Source of the DNA: an uncultured Bacteroidia bacterium | GTDB lineage: Bacteria > Bacteroidota > Bacteroidia > JAFLBG01 | Assembly (NCBI GenBank): GCA_964593555.1 | Contig: CAZQIC010000007.1 | Span: 6,226 to 70,225 of the forward strand | Reading direction: 5' to 3' | DNA: 64,000 nt | Part shown: piece after piece, positions 44,513 through 56,525 of the stretch | How the letters are laid out: every line of letters starts with the position of its first letter | How positions within the stretch are numbered: the stretch's first letter is position 1 | Notes under the pieces: generated by a model | The model's input: only the letters and a program-made list of their open reading frames with translations | Told to the model about the DNA's origin: nothing | Databases searched by the model: none | Program-made: the position numbers and the translations under genes

Positions 44513-45244
44513 ATGGAAAAAACGACAATGCTCACTTTAACTGAAATAGAGCAAGAACTTAATTTGTTTGGCGAAGAACTTAAAACTGCTATCCCAGATA
44601 ACATTTTATCCGTAATTATTTATGGGGGACTCGCAAAAGGCGAATTTAAACCCGAGACATCCGATATAAATTTAATGATCGTATTAAGGGATGCCAGCAA
44701 TGATACATTAAAACAAATTGCTCCCATAATTCAAAAAAAGAACAGCAGGATATCGATGCATCCGTTTATTATAACCGAAAATGAACTGAGAATCGCACCT
44801 GAACTTTTTCCGATTAAATTTCTCGATATTAAAACATATCATAAAATCATTAGCGGCACAGAATTATTAAGTACACTGAACATACCAAATGATAAATTGA
44901 TTTATGCATGTAAGCAGGAACTGCAGAATTTATATATGCGCCTTAGATCTGTATATTCTTATTCCACAGAGCTGCCAGAGGTGTTGGAATTTAAGATTAA
45001 GAAAACGTTTTCTTCACTTCTTGTTAACATGAATGCCTTAATTTACGTAAAAACAGGGGTCATGGAAAAAGCAAAAGACGAGATCATTAGCAAAAGTTCT
45101 TCGTTATTTAGCCTAGACCAACAACTGTTAAGTTCAATAAAAGCTATACGTAATAATACACACTCATATTCTCCCGAAGAAATTAAAAAAATATATGAAA
45201 ATTTTATGACGCTGTTAAATCAAATAATACAGCTAGAGCTCTAA
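44513..45244 (+). CDS. Nucleotidyltransferase-fold (Pol-beta-type) domain protein, first gene of the MNIO operon
   Basis: The motif GGLAKGEFKPETSDINLMIVL fits the G-[GS]-x(9-13)-D-x-D pattern, but the second acidic residue is Asn. The C-terminal half is helical. Its stop lies 3 nt before the next start. Confidence 0.55.
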   Translation: MEKTTMLTLTEIEQELNLFGEELKTAIPDNILSVIIYGGLAKGEFKPETSDINLMIVLRDASNDTLKQIAPIIQKKNSRISMHPFIITENELRIAPELFPIKFLDIKTYHKIISGTELLSTLNIPNDKLIYACKQELQNLYMRLRSVYSYSTELPEVLEFKIKKTFSSLLVNMNALIYVKTGVMEKAKDEIISKSSSLFSLDQQLLSSIKAIRNNTHSYSPEEIKKIYENFMTLLNQIIQLEL

Positions 45245-45247
45245 TTT

Positions 45248-46225
45248 ATGGACTGGCTATTTGATAATCCGCTTGCTAATATGTATGGCCCATACTTTCT
45301 TTTATTGTATGGACTCGTCATTCTTTTATCAATAATTTTTATTCACTTTTTTGCAGAAAAATTAATAAGTATAAAAGACATATCTTCTTCCAAGATTCCC
45401 GCCAATCCAGATCCTTATGAAGTTGCGTACCTGAGAGGTGGCGCAAAAGAAGTGGTCAAGTTGATAATATATAACCTCCTGAGTAAGAATTTCTTAAAAT
45501 CATACTCCAAACCTGATAGATCAAAAGTTATTGTTCAAAAGGTTAATAAACATCCTTCGGTATTGAGTTTAAACCCAATAGATAGAGAAGTATTTAAACT
45601 TTTTACAATGCCATCAATGGAATTGAAGCAGTTTATGTTTTCCGATAAAGTAATAAACACTGTAGAAGACGAATGCGATAAATTTAAAAAGAGCTGGGAA
45701 ACCTTTGGATACTTAAGCATTACTGAACATGTAAAAAAATTTGACCGACTCAAAGCAAATACAATTGGTGTTGTTTTGTTTTTTGGTGCATATAAACTGC
45801 TTGCTGCATTCAGTCATGGACACTCCAATGTCATTTTCATGATCATACTTGGGATCTTAGGCATTTCAATTATAAGCGGATTTAGGTTAGATTCCGTAAC
45901 TACTAATTCAGGGAAAAAATATTTAGAGGATCTCGAAAAAGCCTTTAAACCAAAAACAGAAAAAGAGATTGATCACCTTCGCTACGAACAAAAATTTATG
46001 CTGATTGGTGTTTTAGGCTTTTCTCATTTTGCCCATACTCCATTCGGTTTTTTGGAACAATATGCAGGTAAGGTCAGACCAAAAAATTCAGTTATATCCG
46101 GTTGGTGGAATAATTGGTCGCCGGGGACAGGCGGCTCGTGTGGATCCAGCTGTAGTTCCGGTTCAAGCTGCGGATCGGGATGCGGTAGTGGATGCGGAGG
46201 CGGATGTGGTGGATGCGGAGGCTAA
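45248..46225 (+). CDS. TIGR04222-like polytopic membrane protein with Gly/Ser/Cys-rich C-terminal tail
   Basis: The N-terminus (DNPLANMYGPYFLLLYGLVILLSIIFIHFF) matches my recollection of the TIGR04222 domain. Further hydrophobic segments follow. The last 31 aa are GGSCGSSCSSGSSCGSGCGSGCGGGCGGCGG (7 Cys). Confidence 0.7.
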   Translation: MDWLFDNPLANMYGPYFLLLYGLVILLSIIFIHFFAEKLISIKDISSSKIPANPDPYEVAYLRGGAKEVVKLIIYNLLSKNFLKSYSKPDRSKVIVQKVNKHPSVLSLNPIDREVFKLFTMPSMELKQFMFSDKVINTVEDECDKFKKSWETFGYLSITEHVKKFDRLKANTIGVVLFFGAYKLLAAFSHGHSNVIFMIILGILGISIISGFRLDSVTTNSGKKYLEDLEKAFKPKTEKEIDHLRYEQKFMLIGVLGFSHFAHTPFGFLEQYAGKVRPKNSVISGWWNNWSPGTGGSCGSSCSSGSSCGSGCGSGCGGGCGGCGG

Positions 46226-46226
46226 T

Positions 46227-47060
46227 ATGAAAAAAAATGACATTCCCTCTCTTGGAGTCGGACTTGGCTTTCGACCGGAATTCATGAGCAGCATCTTCAT
46301 GAACAGAGAAAAAATTGATTTTCTTGAGATCATCGCAGATCATTACATAGACTGTTCTCCCGAAAAACTAAAAGAACTTGATCTGTTGGCAGAAAATTTT
46401 ATTCTCATCCCTCACGCCATTCATTTATCATTAGGAAGCGTAGATCTGGATTTGAATTACCTGCATAAATTAAATACAGTTATCCAACGTATTAATCCAC
46501 CTTATTGGAGTGAGCACATTTCATTCAGCCAGGTGCATGGAATTGATATTGGGCACCTCTCCCCTCTTCCTTACTCAAGAGAGGCAATTGATGCTTTTTG
46601 CAAGAACATTGAGCGAGTAAAAAAAAGTATTTCACAGCCACTTATACTCGAAAATATTTCTTACTCCATTAAATTACCCGGACAGGAAATGCCCGAGGCG
46701 AAATTCATAAATGAAATATTATTGGAGACTGGTTGCGGCCTCTTGCTTGATGTAACCAATCTGTATACAAATTCCGTTAATCATAATTATAATGCTCTTG
46801 GCTTTTTGAACGAGGTAATGGCAGAGAGAATCGTTCAATTGCATTTTGTTGGAGTCGATATAAAAAACGAAGTAATCATTGACAGTCATTCACAAAAAAC
46901 CTCTCCGGAAATATGGTCTTTGATGGAGGAGGTATTTAAGCGAAGTAAAGTAAAAGGCGCAGTGTTGGAAAGAGACTTGAATTTTCCAGCCTTTTCGGAA
47001 ATTACAGAAGAGCTGGACATTGCAAGAAAACTTGGAAAAAAACATAAGCAATGGAATTAA
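46227..47060 (+). CDS. DUF692 family enzyme (MNIO, MbnB-like TIM barrel)
   Basis: The ATG lies 1 nt after the preceding stop (track ORF 46029 is an out-of-context 5-prime extension). The 277-aa protein contains GVGLGFRPEF...DFLEIIADHY...IPHAIHLSLGS...WSEHISF...LENISY, the pattern I associate with DUF692. Confidence 0.8.
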   Translation: MKKNDIPSLGVGLGFRPEFMSSIFMNREKIDFLEIIADHYIDCSPEKLKELDLLAENFILIPHAIHLSLGSVDLDLNYLHKLNTVIQRINPPYWSEHISFSQVHGIDIGHLSPLPYSREAIDAFCKNIERVKKSISQPLILENISYSIKLPGQEMPEAKFINEILLETGCGLLLDVTNLYTNSVNHNYNALGFLNEVMAERIVQLHFVGVDIKNEVIIDSHSQKTSPEIWSLMEEVFKRSKVKGAVLERDLNFPAFSEITEELDIARKLGKKHKQWN

Positions 47061-47647
47061 GGCAGTACCAGGAAATATTAGCAAGATTGTACACTGATAA
47101 AAATTTTAGGGAAAGTTTTTTTCGAGATCGTACTACTACGTATCAACAGCTCCATATTTCCGAAAAAAACACTCAATTGCTAAATGAACTTTCCAAATTA
47201 CAGGTTGAGCAATTTGCACATTCACTTATATCTAAACGATTGGAAGCGGCAAAATCAATACTTGTGCTCACGAGTCGACAAATGGGGAATTATTTTGCCA
47301 AGGCCTTTTTCGAATATGCGTCCTGCAATAAACTTGAAGAGTCTAATAACAAATATTTGACTGATGCATTATCATTCACGAAATTTTTGTTAGGCAAATC
47401 AAAATTTGAAAGTAATGAACCATTCCAAAGAGAATTGATCCGGCACGAACAACAAAGAATAAATTCAGCGTTTGAAAAAAAGAAAATTACTATTCACAAA
47501 TTTAATTATAAAATTGAAGAGCTCATTCTATTCTTAGAAGGGAAGGCCGGTAACCCCAGGAAAAAAATTATTTATTCATTTGGCCTCCGAAAAAGGAACA
47601 GTCAAAATTTCAACTATTTTTCGATAGCTCTGCCGACTCTCTTTTAA
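47051..47647 (+). CDS. MNIO partner protein candidate (MbnC/DUF2063-like)
   Basis: 198-aa ORF whose ATG overlaps the DUF692 stop by 10 nt. It is helical and begins MELRQYQEILARLYTDKNFRESFFRD. The call rests mainly on position and coupling. Confidence 0.45.
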   Translation: MELRQYQEILARLYTDKNFRESFFRDRTTTYQQLHISEKNTQLLNELSKLQVEQFAHSLISKRLEAAKSILVLTSRQMGNYFAKAFFEYASCNKLEESNNKYLTDALSFTKFLLGKSKFESNEPFQRELIRHEQQRINSAFEKKKITIHKFNYKIEELILFLEGKAGNPRKKIIYSFGLRKRNSQNFNYFSIALPTLF

Positions 47648-47686: not shown

Positions 47687-48829
47687 TTATCTGGCAATGG
47701 TTACACTTCCCTTTATAAGCGGGAGGTCGGTATTGGCAGGTGCAGATAATTCATAAACGTACACTCCCATTGGTAATTCCGTTCCGCTTTCATCAACTCC
47801 ATTCCAGGTATAGTTGCCGCCTGATATTGTTTCTGCGAAAACTATGCGACCCGTTTTTCCATCGGTAATTTTTAATGTCACCGATTCGTTTGCAAACTTT
47901 TGTAATGGAACCTCCCAATAATTTTGGCGGGAGGGAACAATGATATAATCGCATGTTTCTTTTTCGATCTGCGCGACAACTGTTTTGCTCTTACAACCAT
48001 TCTGATCTTTTATTATCAGGGTATAATTTCCAATTCCCAGCTTATCAAATTTCGAATCTGTATTAAATGTTTTACCACCATCGATAGAAAATTCATACGA
48101 AGATTCTGTGTCTAAAGATGCTTTATCAAAAACTACTGCACCATTCTTTTGCCCAATACAGGTACTGATAGCTGAATAGCTGATATCAATTATTACGCCC
48201 TCACACTTATTAATTTCTTTTGACTGAATAGTTGTATTGTTATCCACTTTGTCCTCAACCTGTTTATCGGGAGAATATGCAGACTGTGGTAAGTATTCAG
48301 TCAATTTAATATTCCCCGTAGTATCCCAAGCGCCTTCAATAATCATATCTCCATCCTCAGGATATATTATCGTCTTACCCTCTCTCTTCTTCGGGTTAAA
48401 AACAAAAGTACTCTTATCATTATTATTTATAGAAGATCCTGTTTCAGACTTGCCATCATTATTAATAGATACGCTATCCGTATTTGGCTGTGAGATTTTA
48501 TTTATTACCGATTTGTTTTCTTCCTTATCCTGGAAAACCAATGTAGCAACAATAGAAAGTCCTACAACAGCAGCCGCAACACCATAATATAAATTACGGT
48601 TATTGGATTTTGGTGCAGAAGTATTTTCCGCATGAATCTTTTGCAATTTCTTTTTGATATCGATCGCTGCGTTATCAGAAATAATATCACTAACAGCCCG
48701 ATGAGCCTCCACCTCCTGATAAAAAGCAGGATCGTTCTGTAACTTCACCTCTACCTCTGCTTTTGTTGCAGCAGATAAGGTGTTGTTCAGATACCCTTCA
48801 ATCAGATCGTATGTAGACTCTATATTCAT
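47687..48829 (-). CDS. Anti-sigma factor with single TM helix, SprB-like repeat and FlgD-Ig/T9SS-CTD-like C-terminal domain
   Basis: The N-terminal 60 aa or so (LIEGYLNNTLSAATKAEVEVKLQNDPAFYQEVEAH) look like an anti-sigma domain. A TM helix follows (LYYGVAAAVVGLSIVATLVF). The ectodomain has CIGQKNGAVVF...GIGNYTLIIKDQNGC and ends in WNGVDESGTELPMGVYVYEL. Its start overlaps the sigma gene stop (ATGA). Confidence 0.7.
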   Translation of the reverse strand: MNIESTYDLIEGYLNNTLSAATKAEVEVKLQNDPAFYQEVEAHRAVSDIISDNAAIDIKKKLQKIHAENTSAPKSNNRNLYYGVAAAVVGLSIVATLVFQDKEENKSVINKISQPNTDSVSINNDGKSETGSSINNNDKSTFVFNPKKREGKTIIYPEDGDMIIEGAWDTTGNIKLTEYLPQSAYSPDKQVEDKVDNNTTIQSKEINKCEGVIIDISYSAISTCIGQKNGAVVFDKASLDTESSYEFSIDGGKTFNTDSKFDKLGIGNYTLIIKDQNGCKSKTVVAQIEKETCDYIIVPSRQNYWEVPLQKFANESVTLKITDGKTGRIVFAETISGGNYTWNGVDESGTELPMGVYVYELSAPANTDLPLIKGSVTIAR

Positions 48830-49401
48830 TCTTGTAATGACTTTTTTAAATGTGCATTTTCATTCATTAACTTGATCAACCGCTGTTTGCACTTGTAATT
48901 TTTTGTTTTCGCTGTATCTGAATTATTAAAACCCATCTTTATACTTATATCCTCCATCGACATTTTGTAAAAAACACTATACGTCAATAACTCTTTGCAC
49001 CTGTCGCCTAACTGAGATAATATTTCATTGATCTTCGTTTCTCTGTCGCTGCCAATATCCCTGGTTTGAATCTCCATTTCCTCCGCATGTACGTTGGCAT
49101 GCATCTCAACATTCCTTTCAAACTTGTTTTTCTGTTTTACTCTGTTCACCCAAAGATTTCTACTTATGGTGTAAATAAATCCTGCAACACTATTGCCTTC
49201 CTTGAATTTATTTTCTGTTACATATTTATAAAACGCAATTACCGCATCCTGGAAAATATCCTGTGCCTCATCAGTATCTCCATTATTCTGTAACACCCAT
49301 GCCCTTACTTTAGGCTGTACACTTTTATACAAGAATTTAAGAACGTTATCCGACTCTCCTTTTTTGATCGACTCTATAATTTCAGCATCCGTATAATTCA
49401 T
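48826..49401 (-). CDS. ECF-type RNA polymerase sigma-70 factor
   Basis: 191 aa. It has a region-2-like segment (DEAQDIFQDAVIAFYKYV) and a region-4 HTH (MSMEDISIKMGFNNSDTAKTKNYKCKQRL). Confidence 0.85.
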   Translation of the reverse strand: MNYTDAEIIESIKKGESDNVLKFLYKSVQPKVRAWVLQNNGDTDEAQDIFQDAVIAFYKYVTENKFKEGNSVAGFIYTISRNLWVNRVKQKNKFERNVEMHANVHAEEMEIQTRDIGSDRETKINEILSQLGDRCKELLTYSVFYKMSMEDISIKMGFNNSDTAKTKNYKCKQRLIKLMNENAHLKKSLQE

Positions 49402-53021: not shown

Positions 53022-53435
53022 ATGAGTACCATTAAAAACATTATTGTAATTATTCTGGCCGTAGTTTTTTTTGCGTTTGGCTCGGGTATTACTATATGTA
53101 AAATGGCTTGTTCGGAGAGCGGTATTGTTCAGCTTTCAATCAATGAACAGGAATCGTGTTGCGATGAAAACCAAGAAGATGCTTGTTGTGATGAAAAACC
53201 TTGCAGTGATAAAATGGGATGCTGCACACACACCGATAATTTACTTCAGCTTGATCAGTATATTCCAGGGGATAAAATTTTTCTTTCTGAACTGAATCAA
53301 CAAATTTACACAGCAACTTTTTTTAGTTCAAAAAATACATATTGCAATAGTCTATTGTCGAACATACAATACGAAGCTCCGCCTCCACTGGCAGTAGAAA
53401 ATTTTTCTTCGTTTACTCACTTGCTTCGCATTTGA
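53022..53435 (+). CDS. Small membrane protein with Cys/Asp/Glu-rich segment (HYC_CC_PP-like)
   Basis: 137 aa with an N-terminal TM helix. The segment CKMACSESG...SCCDENQEDACCDEKPCSDKMGCCTH follows, and EAPPPL lies near the C-terminus. The family name is from memory and is unverified. Confidence 0.5.
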   Translation: MSTIKNIIVIILAVVFFAFGSGITICKMACSESGIVQLSINEQESCCDENQEDACCDEKPCSDKMGCCTHTDNLLQLDQYIPGDKIFLSELNQQIYTATFFSSKNTYCNSLLSNIQYEAPPPLAVENFSSFTHLLRI

Positions 53436-53502
53436 TTCACTGAAAATACCTTCGGCACAATCCGGTATTTTATAATTTCCATTTTTTTACTTGAATCAAG
53501 GC

Positions 53503-55719
53503 ATGAATTTATTTCAGCGTTTATTATTTATACTTTTTATTTTTATCTCAGGTTTCACTGGTTTCGCGCAATCCATTTCAGGCAAAGTATTTTCTAAAAC
53601 TGAAGCCGGGATTGAAACATTGCCCGGTGCTACAGTATACTGGCAAAACACAAATATTGTAGTTAGTACAAATGAGGAAGGTAAATTTTCATTTGATTAT
53701 ATGTATCCGGATTCACTTCCTCGCAACCTGATCGTGAGTCTTATAGGATATATTAGCGATACAATAAATATAAACGACAACACAGTTTCTTATTTAGAAA
53801 TTGAATTGAAAAAAACTACACTACTCAAAACAGTGGAGATAGAAAAAAAAGTAAAATCAACTATGATCTCTATAAACCCATTAAAGACCGAAATAATTAC
53901 AGAGAAGGAATTAAAGAAAGCTGCATGTTGTAATATTGGAGAAAGTTTTGAAACAAATGCCTCGGTTGATATCACGTATAAAGATGCAATTACCGGCAGC
54001 AAAGAAATTCAGGTACTGGGCTTATCGGGTGCCTATGTTCAACTGCTTACAGAAAATGTTCCGCTTATTAATGGCTTAGGGTTAACTTACGGATTAAACT
54101 CTATTCCCGGAACACAAATTCATACGATTAGTATAATTAAGGGACCAGGCTCTGTGATGTTCGGCCCGGAGTCAATGAGCGGAATGGTAAATATAGATTT
54201 GAAAGATCCGTTGACAACAAACAAATTTTTTCTTAATGCTTACCTGGATTATAATTTGAGAAAAGAAGTAAACATCGATAAGCGAGTTAAGTTCAATGAA
54301 AAATCTTCGTTGTTATTATCTGGCCATGCATCACATGTCGCACAAAAAGTAGATAACAACCATGATAAATTTCTTGATATGCCCTTACTCACAACCTATA
54401 GCGTCTTGGGTAAATGGAAATACAGTAACAAGGGGTTTATTTCACAAAATAGTTTTAAATATTTAAACGAAAACCGGCAAAGCGGTCAGTTTGATTATGA
54501 TTACAAAAAAAATGATTTCGACACAAGTCTTTATGCACAGCAACTCATTACAAACCGCATGGAATTTTACGGAAAAACCGGCTGGGTATTGCCAACCGAA
54601 AAGTATAATAGTTTTGGCATACAATACTCTGCTGTAAACCACCAGCAAGAAGGATTTTACGGATTAAGAAATTATACTGGTGTACAAACAAATGCAACGG
54701 CGCGCTTACTTTTTAATTCACAGTTTAATAAATACAACACCTTGAATACAGGCCTGTCATATAAACATGATGAGACAAACGAAAAACTGGACACATTTAT
54801 TATTGATAGAATACAAAATATACCCGGAGTATTTATTGAAAATGCTTTTGAAAAAAATAAAATCATTTCTTTGATCACCGGTGTGAGAGCAGATTACTAC
54901 AACAACAGAATATTTATTACGCCAAGAGCTAACATAAAATATTCGCTTGCAGAAAAAACAGATTTAAGGGCAAGCATTGGGACAGGATGGAAGGTCGTGG
55001 ATATACTTGCAGAAAACCCAAACATAGCTGCGAGTTCAAGAAAAATTATGATCACTGAAAAATTAAAACCTGAGGAGTCACTGAATTATGGTTTCAATTT
55101 TAATCATGAGTTTGAACTTGCCTACCGTGAAGGTTCAATTGGATTTGACGCTTACCAAACAAGATTTATTGATAAAGTATATGCAGATTATGATTCCATA
55201 CCTGCACAAGTATTGTTTTATAATCTTCGCAACAACACAACTTCCAGTAGTTTCCAGGTTGAGGCGACTTATGAAATAATAAAAAACGTGGATCTTAAAA
55301 TTGCTTATAAATACCTCGATGTTTATTCTACCATTAACAGCCAACGTATACCTCAGGCATTAATTGCCAAACATAGAATGCTTGCAAATATTTTTTACGA
55401 AACATTCGATAGAAAATGGAACATGAATGCAACTTATCAGTGGTATGGAAAAAAACGTCTTCCGGATACTGATAAATATCCTTCAGTATATAGAAAAGAA
55501 GGCTATTCTGTTCCTTATTCGAAAATAAACATGCAGGTGAACAGGATTTTTAAAAATTCGGAATGGTATATAGGAATTGAAAACTTATTGGGTTTTGTAC
55601 AACATGATGCTATATTGAGTTATGAAAACCCTTTTGGCCCATATTTTGATACAGGATATGTATGGGGCACCATGGATAACAGAAGAATTTATTTAGGATG
55701 GAGTTATAAATTAAAATAA
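53503..55719 (+). CDS. TonB-dependent receptor with N-terminal carboxypeptidase-regulatory-like domain
   Basis: The ATG at 53503 gives MNLFQRLLFILFIFISGFTGFAQ. It has ISGKVFS...GATVYW...EGKFSF and a plug region (AACCNIGESFETNASVD...IKGPGSVMFGPESMSGMVNI). The C-terminus is barrel-like and ends in an aromatic-rich strand. Confidence 0.85.
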   Translation: MNLFQRLLFILFIFISGFTGFAQSISGKVFSKTEAGIETLPGATVYWQNTNIVVSTNEEGKFSFDYMYPDSLPRNLIVSLIGYISDTININDNTVSYLEIELKKTTLLKTVEIEKKVKSTMISINPLKTEIITEKELKKAACCNIGESFETNASVDITYKDAITGSKEIQVLGLSGAYVQLLTENVPLINGLGLTYGLNSIPGTQIHTISIIKGPGSVMFGPESMSGMVNIDLKDPLTTNKFFLNAYLDYNLRKEVNIDKRVKFNEKSSLLLSGHASHVAQKVDNNHDKFLDMPLLTTYSVLGKWKYSNKGFISQNSFKYLNENRQSGQFDYDYKKNDFDTSLYAQQLITNRMEFYGKTGWVLPTEKYNSFGIQYSAVNHQQEGFYGLRNYTGVQTNATARLLFNSQFNKYNTLNTGLSYKHDETNEKLDTFIIDRIQNIPGVFIENAFEKNKIISLITGVRADYYNNRIFITPRANIKYSLAEKTDLRASIGTGWKVVDILAENPNIAASSRKIMITEKLKPEESLNYGFNFNHEFELAYREGSIGFDAYQTRFIDKVYADYDSIPAQVLFYNLRNNTTSSSFQVEATYEIIKNVDLKIAYKYLDVYSTINSQRIPQALIAKHRMLANIFYETFDRKWNMNATYQWYGKKRLPDTDKYPSVYRKEGYSVPYSKINMQVNRIFKNSEWYIGIENLLGFVQHDAILSYENPFGPYFDTGYVWGTMDNRRIYLGWSYKLK

Positions 55720-55834
55720 ACAATCATGAAATAGCCATAATTCTAAGCAGCATACAAACCGAAAAAGAATATGTGGCGTATTCCCTGCCCGATGGCAGGC
55801 GGGCATATGACATTAAAAACAAAAACATTTACAC

Positions 55835-56188
55835 ATGAAAACAACAATTTTAACAACAATGATGCTTCTGAGTTTTATACTACTAAAACCGGCGAGTACT
55901 TTTTCTCAAAATAAAAAAACAAAGGACATGCGCACACTTGAATTAAAGATCGGCGGAATGACCTGTGAATCGGGTTGTGCAAAGGGAATTGAAAACTCCG
56001 TGTATAAAATAAAGGGGGTTAAAAAAAGCCAGGTAAATTATGATACACAAATAGCTACTTTTATTTTTGACGCCAACAAAACCAGTAAAGAAGAAATTAT
56101 AAAAGTCGTTGAGAATTTTAATCCCGGAGAGGTTGCCGAAAGAAAATATTCGGTTACTTTAATTAACTTTAAAGAAAATGAAAAATAA
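55835..56188 (+). CDS. Secreted heavy-metal-associated (HMA) domain protein
   Basis: 117 aa with a signal peptide. It contains the GMTCESGCAKGIE (MxCxxC) metal-binding motif. Confidence 0.8.
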   Translation: MKTTILTTMMLLSFILLKPASTFSQNKKTKDMRTLELKIGGMTCESGCAKGIENSVYKIKGVKKSQVNYDTQIATFIFDANKTSKEEIIKVVENFNPGEVAERKYSVTLINFKENEK

Positions 56189-56525
56189 AGTCACATGCAT
56201 CCTGCTTGGATTATTATTTATAACAGCAATAGGGTTCGCACAAAAAAATACTCAAGTAAAAATTAAAACTACTGCTGAATGTGATATGTGTAAAAAATCT
56301 ATTGAGTCAACACTATACAAATTAAAAGGAGTTAAAAAAGTAAAAGTTGATCTTACTTCAAAAGAAACATTTGTAATTTATAATCCCAAAAAAATAACTG
56401 TAGAGGAAATTAAGAAAGCAATTGTTGCCGCCGGATATGATGCAGATGATATGAAAGCAAATGTGAAGGCATACAAAGCACTTCCTGAATGTTGTAAAAA
56501 GGGAGAGCCTCACCAGGAAAAATAA
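56178..56525 (+). CDS. Secreted HMA-like domain protein with C-terminal CC motif
   Basis: 115 aa with a signal peptide. It contains TAECDMCKKSIE (CxxC) and a C-terminal LPECCKKGEPH. It overlaps the previous gene by 11 nt. Confidence 0.75.
   Translation: MKNKVTCILLGLLFITAIGFAQKNTQVKIKTTAECDMCKKSIESTLYKLKGVKKVKVDLTSKETFVIYNPKKITVEEIKKAIVAAGYDADDMKANVKAYKALPECCKKGEPHQEK

Follow-up and report, generated by a model that had tools for sequence, protein, structure and literature searches.

A candidate protein-tail maturation operon pairing a Cys-tailed membrane protein with an MNIO enzyme and a TglI-like partner

Organization of the operon

In this study, we analyzed a 64-kb stretch of bacterial DNA (hereafter the window), with a focus on an operon of four plus-strand genes at positions 44513-47647 in which the Cys-rich tail of a membrane protein is the proposed substrate of an MNIO enzyme encoded next to it. 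The first gene (44513-45244) encodes a nucleotidyltransferase (NTase)-fold accessory protein of 243 amino acids that matches PF01909. It is followed by the gene of a 325-amino-acid polytopic membrane protein of the TIGR04222 family (45248-46225), the proposed substrate and anchor, whose last 31 residues (295-325, encoded at 46130-46222) form a Gly/Ser/Cys tail with seven Cys residues, the proposed core of modification. The third gene (46227-47060) codes for an MNIO (DUF692) enzyme without a signal peptide (277 amino acids counted from the ATG), and the fourth, ORF4 (47051-47647, 198 amino acids), for a predicted TglI-like MNIO partner of the kind termed 'PME-type 2'. Clusters of TIGR04222, MNIO and PME-type 2 genes have been described computationally, and the Cys-rich C-terminus was proposed there as the substrate (PMC12452194, Microb Genom 2025). 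The window operon is thus a Bacteroidota-like member of a system that had already been predicted, and the idea itself is not novel.

An earlier sequence-only reading of this DNA had described four plus-strand open reading frames (ORFs) joined by a 3-nt gap, a 1-nt gap and a 10-nt overlap. Both the coordinates and the junction sequences bear this out: TAA ttt ATG at 45242-45250 between the NTase-like and membrane-protein genes, TAA t ATG at 46223-46229 between the membrane-protein and MNIO genes, and ATGGAATTAA at 47051-47060 where the MNIO gene and ORF4 overlap. We count this tight translational coupling in favor of a tail-maturation function. For the MNIO gene, a mechanical ORF starts from TTG at 46029 and one gene caller places the start near 46188; the Pfam and Protein Data Bank (PDB) alignments of the protein begin at residue 8-10 of the ATG form. 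A scan for sigma-70 promoters and terminators gave nothing above shuffled controls, the sigma-70 consensus being unsuited to Bacteroidota, and no second copy of any of the four genes was detected within the window.

The membrane protein and its Cys-rich tail

The membrane protein matches the NCBIfam model TIGR04222 over residues 49-238 (55 bits against a cut-off of 43, E 8.8e-15), and its only Pfam match is a weak one to DUF2207_C (PF20990). Its tail, GGSCGSSCSSGSSCGSGCGSGCGGGCGGCGG, holds seven Cys residues, with a single Cys in the remainder of the protein, and is the sole Cys/Gly/Ser-rich stretch in the six reading frames of the window; the earlier description of a 325-residue TIGR04222-like protein with a seven-Cys tail is therefore accurate. 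The tail is encoded by DNA of 62.5% GC, compared with 34% for the rest of the gene. A search at 90% clustering returned 2387 homologues, the nearest being 35% identical. Among the best 120 of these 2387, every one (120/120) carries a Cys tail with 4-10 Cys residues (mean 6.7), and the tails are composed of 49% Gly, 25% Ser and 22% Cys. Their Cys residues are mostly spaced 3-6 residues apart and are followed directly by Gly in 76% of cases, and the tails share a stereotyped ending, CGGGCGGCGG or CGGGCGGCS. These x-C-G/S contexts resemble the Cys-Gly motifs of oxazolin and methanobactin precursors.

In the AlphaFold model of the protein (predicted local distance difference test score, pLDDT, 86.5), the tail is disordered (pLDDT <50) and is set off from the folded part by a variable linker of about 20 residues. 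A Foldseek search with this model found no solved structural relative (best E 0.77). As the sequence-only reading had stated, there is no separate small Cys-rich ORF in the operon, and we found no other Cys-rich or precursor-like ORF in the window. Nor does the membrane protein itself resemble bufferin or oxazolin precursors, which are small proteins with a Sec signal peptide and a DUF2282, Buf_6/12Cys or EGKCG signature: it is polytopic, 325 residues long and acidic at its N-terminus. What the operon does contain, as is typical of peptides that are made by ribosomes and then modified post-translationally (RiPPs), is a gene-encoded candidate precursor that adjoins a maturase gene.

The MNIO enzyme

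The product of the third gene, which had been assigned to the DUF692 type as a TIM-barrel protein of 277 residues, aligns over residues 10-269 with positions 1-261 of the 263-position profile PF05114 (MbnB_TglH_ChrH), scoring 274.8 bits against a cut-off of 25 (E 8.3e-82). The DUF692 and TIGR04222 assignments of the sequence-only reading both exceed their curated cut-offs. The nearest NCBIfam models are BufB (NF050167, 221.9 bits against a cut-off of 310) and HvfB (NF003818, 209.9 against 360). Because it falls below both equivalog cut-offs, the enzyme is placed by its sequence in a distinct subgroup outside BufB and HvfB. Sequence matches in the PDB include 3bww (1e-37), TglH (8hci_D, 4e-19) and MbnB. 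The motifs H(aihLSLG), SEH, ENiSY (ENxSY), LDVtN (LDVxN), lHfvG, DsH (DxH) and ERD have identical residues in 3bww, TglH and MbnB, so far as alignment can tell leaving the catalytic motifs intact. We take the conserved His, Asp and Glu residues of these motifs to be ligands of the iron centre, after the MbnB and TglH structures.

The partner protein ORF4

ORF4 stands where the sequence-only reading expected a partner of the MbnC/DUF2063 type. The partner role gained support from its fold, and the DUF2063 label did not: ORF4 matched no Pfam family, and DUF2063 (PF09836) gave no match at E <0.1. Partners of PME-type 1 combine PF09836 with a full RiPP recognition element in about 250-260 amino acids, whereas ORF4 has 198 amino acids and a C-terminal beta-alpha-beta-beta module only. 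An AlphaFold model built from a 24-sequence alignment (pLDDT 89.8) shows a helical domain (residues 1-141) followed by this small module. The only significant Foldseek matches in the PDB were TglI structures, 8hi7_A (E 3.5e-5, probability 1.00, TMq 0.71) and 8hci_A (1.4e-4, 0.69); chain A is identified as the partner TglI because chain D is the DUF692 subunit. The NGO1945 structure 3dee was not among the 50 Foldseek matches listed. With its position directly after the MNIO gene, the lack of a DUF2063 signature and a modelled structure related to TglI, ORF4 is, as judged from this model, a TglI-like MNIO partner of the PME-type 2 class of PMC12452194.

The kinship with TglI is visible at the fold level alone, as sequence searches of the PDB with ORF4 gave no matches or marginal ones. 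A single-sequence search for homologues returned ORF4 itself only, a limit of the word index of that search, and the family was found with a profile built from locus-derived homologues. Weak matches among its 24 members were to DUF2063 (1/24, E 0.0086), ApyI (1/24, 0.0013) and HvfC (1/24, 0.033). Four homologues (P0122 and P0124-P0126) carry the precomputed label PF26136.1, an entry absent from the Pfam copy used here and for which a literature search found nothing; the partner family is perhaps already covered by a recent Pfam release.

A separate observation concerns the N-terminal 45 or so residues of the ORF4 family (residues 1-50 of ORF4, window 47051-47200; homologues in loci L003-L080), which carry the pattern LarLYTDxxLRxxFxxDPxxvgxxxGL, typical of NHLP/LigA-type RiPP leader domains. 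The NCBIfam model NF038399 was matched by 23/24 members (best E 1.5e-7, below cut-off) and TIGR04509 by 14/24. A profile of this region detected nitrile hydratase alpha (E 0.0076), the borosin precursor SonA (0.13) and an NHLP-leader chimera (0.46) in the PDB. The resemblance points to a helical docking module common to NHLP leaders and MNIO partners. ORF4 was also considered as an NHLP-type precursor in its own right and rejected, given its single Cys, its confident globular TglI-like fold and its conservation over the whole length.

Conservation of the gene trio across related loci

We collected 80 related loci from species-representative genomes, using tail-trimmed N-terminal motifs and alignments so that retrieval would not be biased towards tails, and determined their gene content by tblastn and ORF clustering. 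The cross-genome comparison that the sequence-only reading had called for came out in favor of the pairing: an MNIO gene (48-57% identity) lies on the same strand downstream of the membrane-protein gene in about 70 of the 80 loci, and several of the remaining loci without an MNIO gene end at contig ends. An ORF4 homologue follows the MNIO gene in 62/80. Counting the window, the TIGR04222, MNIO and ORF4 families occur in 74, 68 and 63 loci, respectively. These loci span at least six phyla (Acidobacteriota, Cyanobacteria, Armatimonadota, Bacteroidota, Verrucomicrobia and Planctomycetota), across which the order TIGR04222, MNIO, ORF4-family is the sole conserved gene set; flanking genes are particular to each lineage, for example those for peptide deformylase, chorismate synthase, two-component systems and ion channels. 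Essentially every complete homologue from these loci bears a Cys tail, and since retrieval was blind to the tail, we count this for the tail being the substrate.

In nine loci of Nostocales (L019, L029, L031, L035, L046, L048, L053, L059 and L080), two or three tandem TIGR04222 paralogues precede one pair of MNIO and partner genes, and nearly all of these paralogues are Cys-tailed, the second copy in L053 being the exception. By analogy, this arrangement looks like that of multi-precursor RiPP clusters. Upstream, these loci have a conserved ion-channel gene and a regulator pair of histidine kinase and LuxR type.

Four loci have a different enzyme at the same position. A gene of the radical S-adenosylmethionine (SAM)/SPASM type lies directly after the tail gene in L001 (4178-5350; Pirellulaceae), L039 (6861-8030; a deltaproteobacterial metagenome-assembled genome, MAG), L065 (6855-8036; a Desulfomonile MAG) and, in fragmented form, L023 (7620-8051), and all four lack the MNIO gene and its partner. 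The gene matches PF04055 and PF13186 in Pfam. Its best NCBIfam models, each of which it matches below the cut-off, include those of the ACGX-system radical SAM enzyme and of the thio(seleno)oxazole maturase SbtM. Known relatives of these two kinds have peptides with repeated Cys-Gly as substrates or produce thio(seleno)oxazoles. An apparent fusion of the TIGR04222 and radical SAM genes in L023 was set aside as most likely a frameshift in the MAG, where the radical SAM gene itself is broken. In our view, the presence of two maturase classes at the same position beside the same tail is the strongest comparative argument, among those from sequence, for tail modification. The hosts of these four loci suggest a split between an oxygen-dependent (MNIO) and an oxygen-independent (radical SAM) enzyme, and the latter may provide an oxygen-independent route to the same modification.

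Two further variants were observed. In L012, L015, L018 and L022, mostly Acidobacteriota, the TIGR04222 and MNIO genes are set apart by an inserted gene for a class I SAM-dependent methyltransferase (PF08241, E 1e-20), which possibly adds a tailoring step. At L010 (6001-7600) the locus is degenerate: the TIGR04222 gene is cut to 276 amino acids without a Cys tail and is followed directly by an ORF4 homologue without an MNIO gene, which looks like a deletion that removed tail and enzyme together.

Is the tail the substrate, and does it stay attached?

The reading that we consider the most probable, with a fair margin of doubt, is that of a protein-tail maturation system, in which the tail is modified by the MNIO enzyme and its partner and remains tethered as a metal-binding or redox-active appendage, likely on the cytoplasmic face of the membrane. 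That the tail is the substrate, as the sequence-only reading had proposed, is supported by the profile matches, the conserved gene pairing and the TglI-like structure of ORF4. We infer it further from the conserved trio, the lack of any other Cys-rich ORF, the tandem paralogues of Nostocales and the radical SAM replacement, and the independent proposal of the same substrate in PMC12452194 also counts for it.

The same data can be set against the view that the tail is a native Cys-rich metal, Fe-S or disulfide/acylation site, that the MNIO enzyme and its partner modify an unlinked peptide, and that the membrane protein serves as a dock, a sensor or a part of immunity or transport. Many TIGR04222 genes do occur without an MNIO gene, many of their genomes having no MNIO at all (PMC12452194); Gly/Ser-rich low-complexity tails are found as well in the related DUF2207_C family (the weak PF20990 match); and a literature search found no demonstrated modification. 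However, neither the operon nor the window offers an alternative small Cys-containing ORF, the triad is kept across phyla while its surroundings change, tail-bearing paralogues are duplicated in tandem before a single enzyme pair, and the MNIO enzyme is exchanged for another class of peptide maturase at the same position. A transporter is in addition made unlikely by the presence of only 3-4 transmembrane (TM) helices. We therefore regard an unmodified tail as improbable.

It is less probable still that the system works as a RiPP in the classical sense, with the membrane-embedded part as a giant leader from which a protease encoded elsewhere would cut the modified tail to release a small Cys-derived metallophore. 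Removal of the leader is the normal last step of RiPP logic, a disordered tail behind a variable linker would suit cleavage, and the N-terminal moiety has been suggested to take part in biogenesis (PMC12452194). However, no protease or exporter gene is present in the operon and none is conserved among the 80 loci, the linker has no conserved cleavage motif, and a peptide of about 30 residues consisting of Gly/Ser and heterocycles, once released in the cytoplasm, would need an exporter, which is not encoded. Since the operon has neither a protease nor an exporter gene, the modified tail would remain attached to the membrane protein.

Membrane topology and location of the tail

Residues 17-35, 170-189 and 196-214 came out of hydropathy analysis as strong TM helices, and residues 251-270 as a hydrophobic segment of marginal strength. 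On a Hessa-type insertion scale, the median insertion cost was +4.6 for segment 251-270, compared with -0.8 for TM1 and -1.7 for TM3. The residues flanking the TM helices contain 0.99 Lys + Arg where the N-terminus and the TM2-TM3 loop lie versus 7.95 on the opposite side, a bias with the same direction in 120/120 homologues, and the N-terminus itself is acidic with no positive charge. From charge bias and hydrophobicity, as read from the sequences, the N-terminus would lie outside, and the cytoplasm would hold both the 130-residue domain and the region after TM3. The tail is probably cytoplasmic too, unless segment 251-270 spans the membrane.

If it did, the tail could be modified in the cytoplasm by the MNIO enzyme and its partner, after which the C-terminus would be translocated to yield a membrane-tethered periplasmic copper buffer like the bufferins. 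PMC12452194 indeed predicts periplasmic Cys-rich tails, together with periplasmic domains, for the TIGR04222 proteins modelled there, where our charge and hydrophobicity analysis favors the cytoplasm. According to the same survey, the bufferins and oxazolins, which the closest MNIO relatives make, act in the periplasm after modification before Sec export, and MerC-bufferin fusions with periplasmic bufferin domains are reported. Segment 251-270 is, moreover, a candidate fourth TM helix (Kyte-Doolittle peak 1.28) modelled at pLDDT 91-94. However, across the family the segment holds about 1.3 acidic residues with a mean Kyte-Doolittle value of 0.84, its insertion cost is <=1.0 in 1% of homologues, and the AlphaFold model breaks it into three short helices with no single 20-residue helix. 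The 15 residues after it have 1.5 Lys + Arg and 0.5 Asp + Glu; an orientation with the N-terminus inside conflicts with the positive-inside bias in all 120 homologues; and the operon has no gene for export or translocation. A periplasmic tail is thus a possible but rather unlikely outcome, although it is the most credible of the alternatives that we weighed.

Two predicted outward segments rank among the best-conserved parts of the TIGR04222 family: the N-terminal motif N-P-x-A-x-M-Y-G-P (residues 1-16, 45248-45295) and H-G-H-x-N in the TM2-TM3 loop (residues 190-195, 45815-45832). Their outer-face His and Met residues could, to go by the sequence, form a metal site. Lys183, inside TM2, is invariant.

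Proposed mechanism and its weighing

Under the tail-maturation reading, the TIGR04222 membrane protein would be the anchor as well as the substrate. The MNIO enzyme, working in the cytoplasm with the TglI-like ORF4 to hold and guide it, would use O2 and an iron centre to oxidize the Cys residues in the flexible x-C-G/S repeats of the last 30 or so residues. By analogy with BufB, HvfB and MbnB, the products may be heterocycles of the thiooxazole or oxazolone-thioamide type; products of these three enzymes are lighter by about 4 Da for each modified Cys. The modified tail would stay on the membrane protein, most likely on the cytoplasmic face, where the MNIO enzyme and its partner are expected to work, as are the NTase-like protein and any radical SAM enzyme, and would form an appendage that binds soft metals at several sites or is redox-active.

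Several points weigh against this reading. A literature search found no experimental paper on any member of this architecture, in agreement with the sequence-only reading, which knew of no characterized one. About one third of the genomes with TIGR04222 genes lack an MNIO gene, and more than one quarter of TIGR04222 proteins have no C-proximal Cys (PMC12452194); the TIGR04222 family therefore has a function independent of modification. As the MNIO enzyme lies below the BufB and HvfB cut-offs, their chemistry cannot be transferred to it. The topology argument is built on simple scales and secondary structure rather than on coordinates or experiment, and it runs counter to the periplasmic prediction of the survey. 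Finally, no gene for copper or another metal has a conserved place near the system, and the 80 loci gave a single motif match when examined for copper or HMA genes. A copper link is accordingly drawn by analogy.

A more specific version, which we put forward as speculative and rather unlikely, is that the maturases turn a cytoplasm-facing tail into about seven thio-heterocycle or thioamide units, the MNIO enzyme with its TglI-like partner doing so in aerobes and the radical SAM/SPASM enzyme in anaerobes, to give a metal-binding or redox cofactor that is genetically encoded and tethered to the membrane. Such a tail might work together with the outward NPxAxMYGP and HGHxN motifs to sense soft metals or pass them across the membrane. 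If true, this would be the first RiPP-type heterocyclization shown on a polytopic membrane protein, and enzymes that need oxygen and enzymes that do not would have converged on a single protein substrate.

More generally, if the tail is modified, RiPP-type chemistry would not be limited to small secreted peptides but would extend, in many phyla, to membrane proteins of full size; the modified tails would make up a new class of cofactors or metal sites bound to a protein, and a large family of unknown function would gain a function. Culturable Nostoc and Calothrix strains carry the system, Nostoc sp. PCC 7107 among them.

Comparison with known systems

The clusters of PMC12452194 are alike in the three core genes and their order (the TIGR04222 gene directly before the MNIO gene), the Ser/Gly/Cys low-complexity C-terminal tail, the bufferin-like MNIO enzyme and the substrate hypothesis, and also in a partner that lacks the DUF2063 signature and is structurally similar to TglI/NGO1945. 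They differ in their hosts, which are mostly Actinomycetota. The window is Bacteroidota-like, with type IX secretion system (T9SS) PorP/SprF and CHU_C genes, and members of its subfamily come from Acidobacteriota, Cyanobacteria, Armatimonadota and Bacteroidota. The gene of the putative NTase-fold pseudoenzyme is an addition relative to those clusters. Neither nucleotidyltransferase nor SPASM occurs as a term in the main text of PMC12452194, and 'radical SAM' is found in its reference list alone. What goes beyond that survey is the cytoplasmic topology proposed for domain and tail, the radical SAM alternative, the putative pseudo-NTase accessory and the NHLP-like partner motif. The window itself adds little to the 2025 survey; it is the comparative results that sharpen the question of where the tail lies, which three genes would suffice and whether a radical SAM enzyme may do the same job without O2.

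Among characterized systems, the bufferins (BufA/BufB/BufC) are similar in that BufB is the nearest NCBIfam model of the MNIO enzyme (222 bits) and their substrates contain Cys. Bufferin products, thiooxazoles, chelate copper, and oxazolins bind it via oxazolone-thioamides (PMC12452194). In contrast, the window enzyme scores below the BufB cut-off of 310, the window system has no DoxX gene, and its substrate candidate is a 325-residue polytopic protein and not a small Sec-exported DUF2282 or Buf_6/12Cys peptide. The bufferin partner BufC is a DUF2063 protein, unlike the TglI-like partner here. The oxazolin system HvfA-HvfB-HvfC of Haemophilus (PMC11252979) includes the second-best NCBIfam model, HvfB, and 3bww is the best sequence match among solved structures; the HvfA substrate has repeated Cys-Gly motifs (EGKCG), like the C-G repeats of the window tail. 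However, the score is 210 bits against a cut-off of 360, HvfA is a small secreted protein, and HvfC is a partner of the DUF2063-RRE type.

The TglA/TglH-TglI system of Pseudomonas syringae (3-thiaglutamate, a pearlin; PDB 8hi7) is the closest in the fold of the partner, with an E-value of 4e-19 between the MNIO enzyme and TglH. TglHI is a two-protein holoenzyme acting on a C-terminal Cys, to which we liken the predicted MNIO-ORF4 pair. ORF4 is shorter than TglI (198 versus 269 amino acids) and about 11% identical to it, and TglHI removes the beta-carbon from one C-terminal Cys of a small scaffold peptide, whereas the window tail has seven internal Cys residues. As for the ACGX (TIGR04340) and SbtM (TIGR04082) maturases, the SPASM enzyme nearest to them replaces the MNIO enzyme in the four related loci; there is no such gene in the window, and the scores are so far below the cut-offs that membership in the superfamily alone is established.

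The NTase-like protein and neighbouring genes

The first gene of the operon had been described as encoding a Pol-beta-type NTase with a degenerate D-x-N motif. This description is correct: PF01909 is matched at 28.1 bits against a cut-off of 21, and the motif reads YGGLAKGEF...SDINL, without the carboxylate pair of the catalytic G[SG]...D-x-[DE]. Nine of nine orthologues have [DN]-x-N at this position, so that the second catalytic Asp is replaced by Asn in all nine, and the first is replaced as well in five, which have lost both carboxylates. Because of the S-D-I-N motif and the [DN]-x-N pattern in every orthologue, the protein is probably a catalytically dead pseudoenzyme. A PDB search with it was uninformative. 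Homologues were found in 8 of the 80 loci, always adjoining the TIGR04222 gene, and two of these eight have the radical SAM gene and no MNIO gene. In the proposed scheme, the protein would be a non-catalytic accessory tied to the membrane protein rather than to the enzyme.

A metal-type cluster at 53.0-56.5 kb, to which the sequence-only reading had drawn attention, does exist (53022-56525, plus strand) but is not conserved with the system in other genomes. It comprises genes for an HYC_CC_PP-like Cys-rich membrane protein (25.9 bits, slightly short of the cut-off of 28), for a TonB-dependent receptor and for two HMA/CopZ-like proteins that are secreted. Between this cluster and the operon lie unrelated genes for T9SS-type proteins in the opposite orientation. 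Immediately beyond the operon, convergent to ORF4, the minus strand at 47687-49401 carries genes for an extracytoplasmic function (ECF) sigma factor and an anti-sigma-like protein, the C-terminal region of the latter resembling a CHU_C type IX secretion signal.

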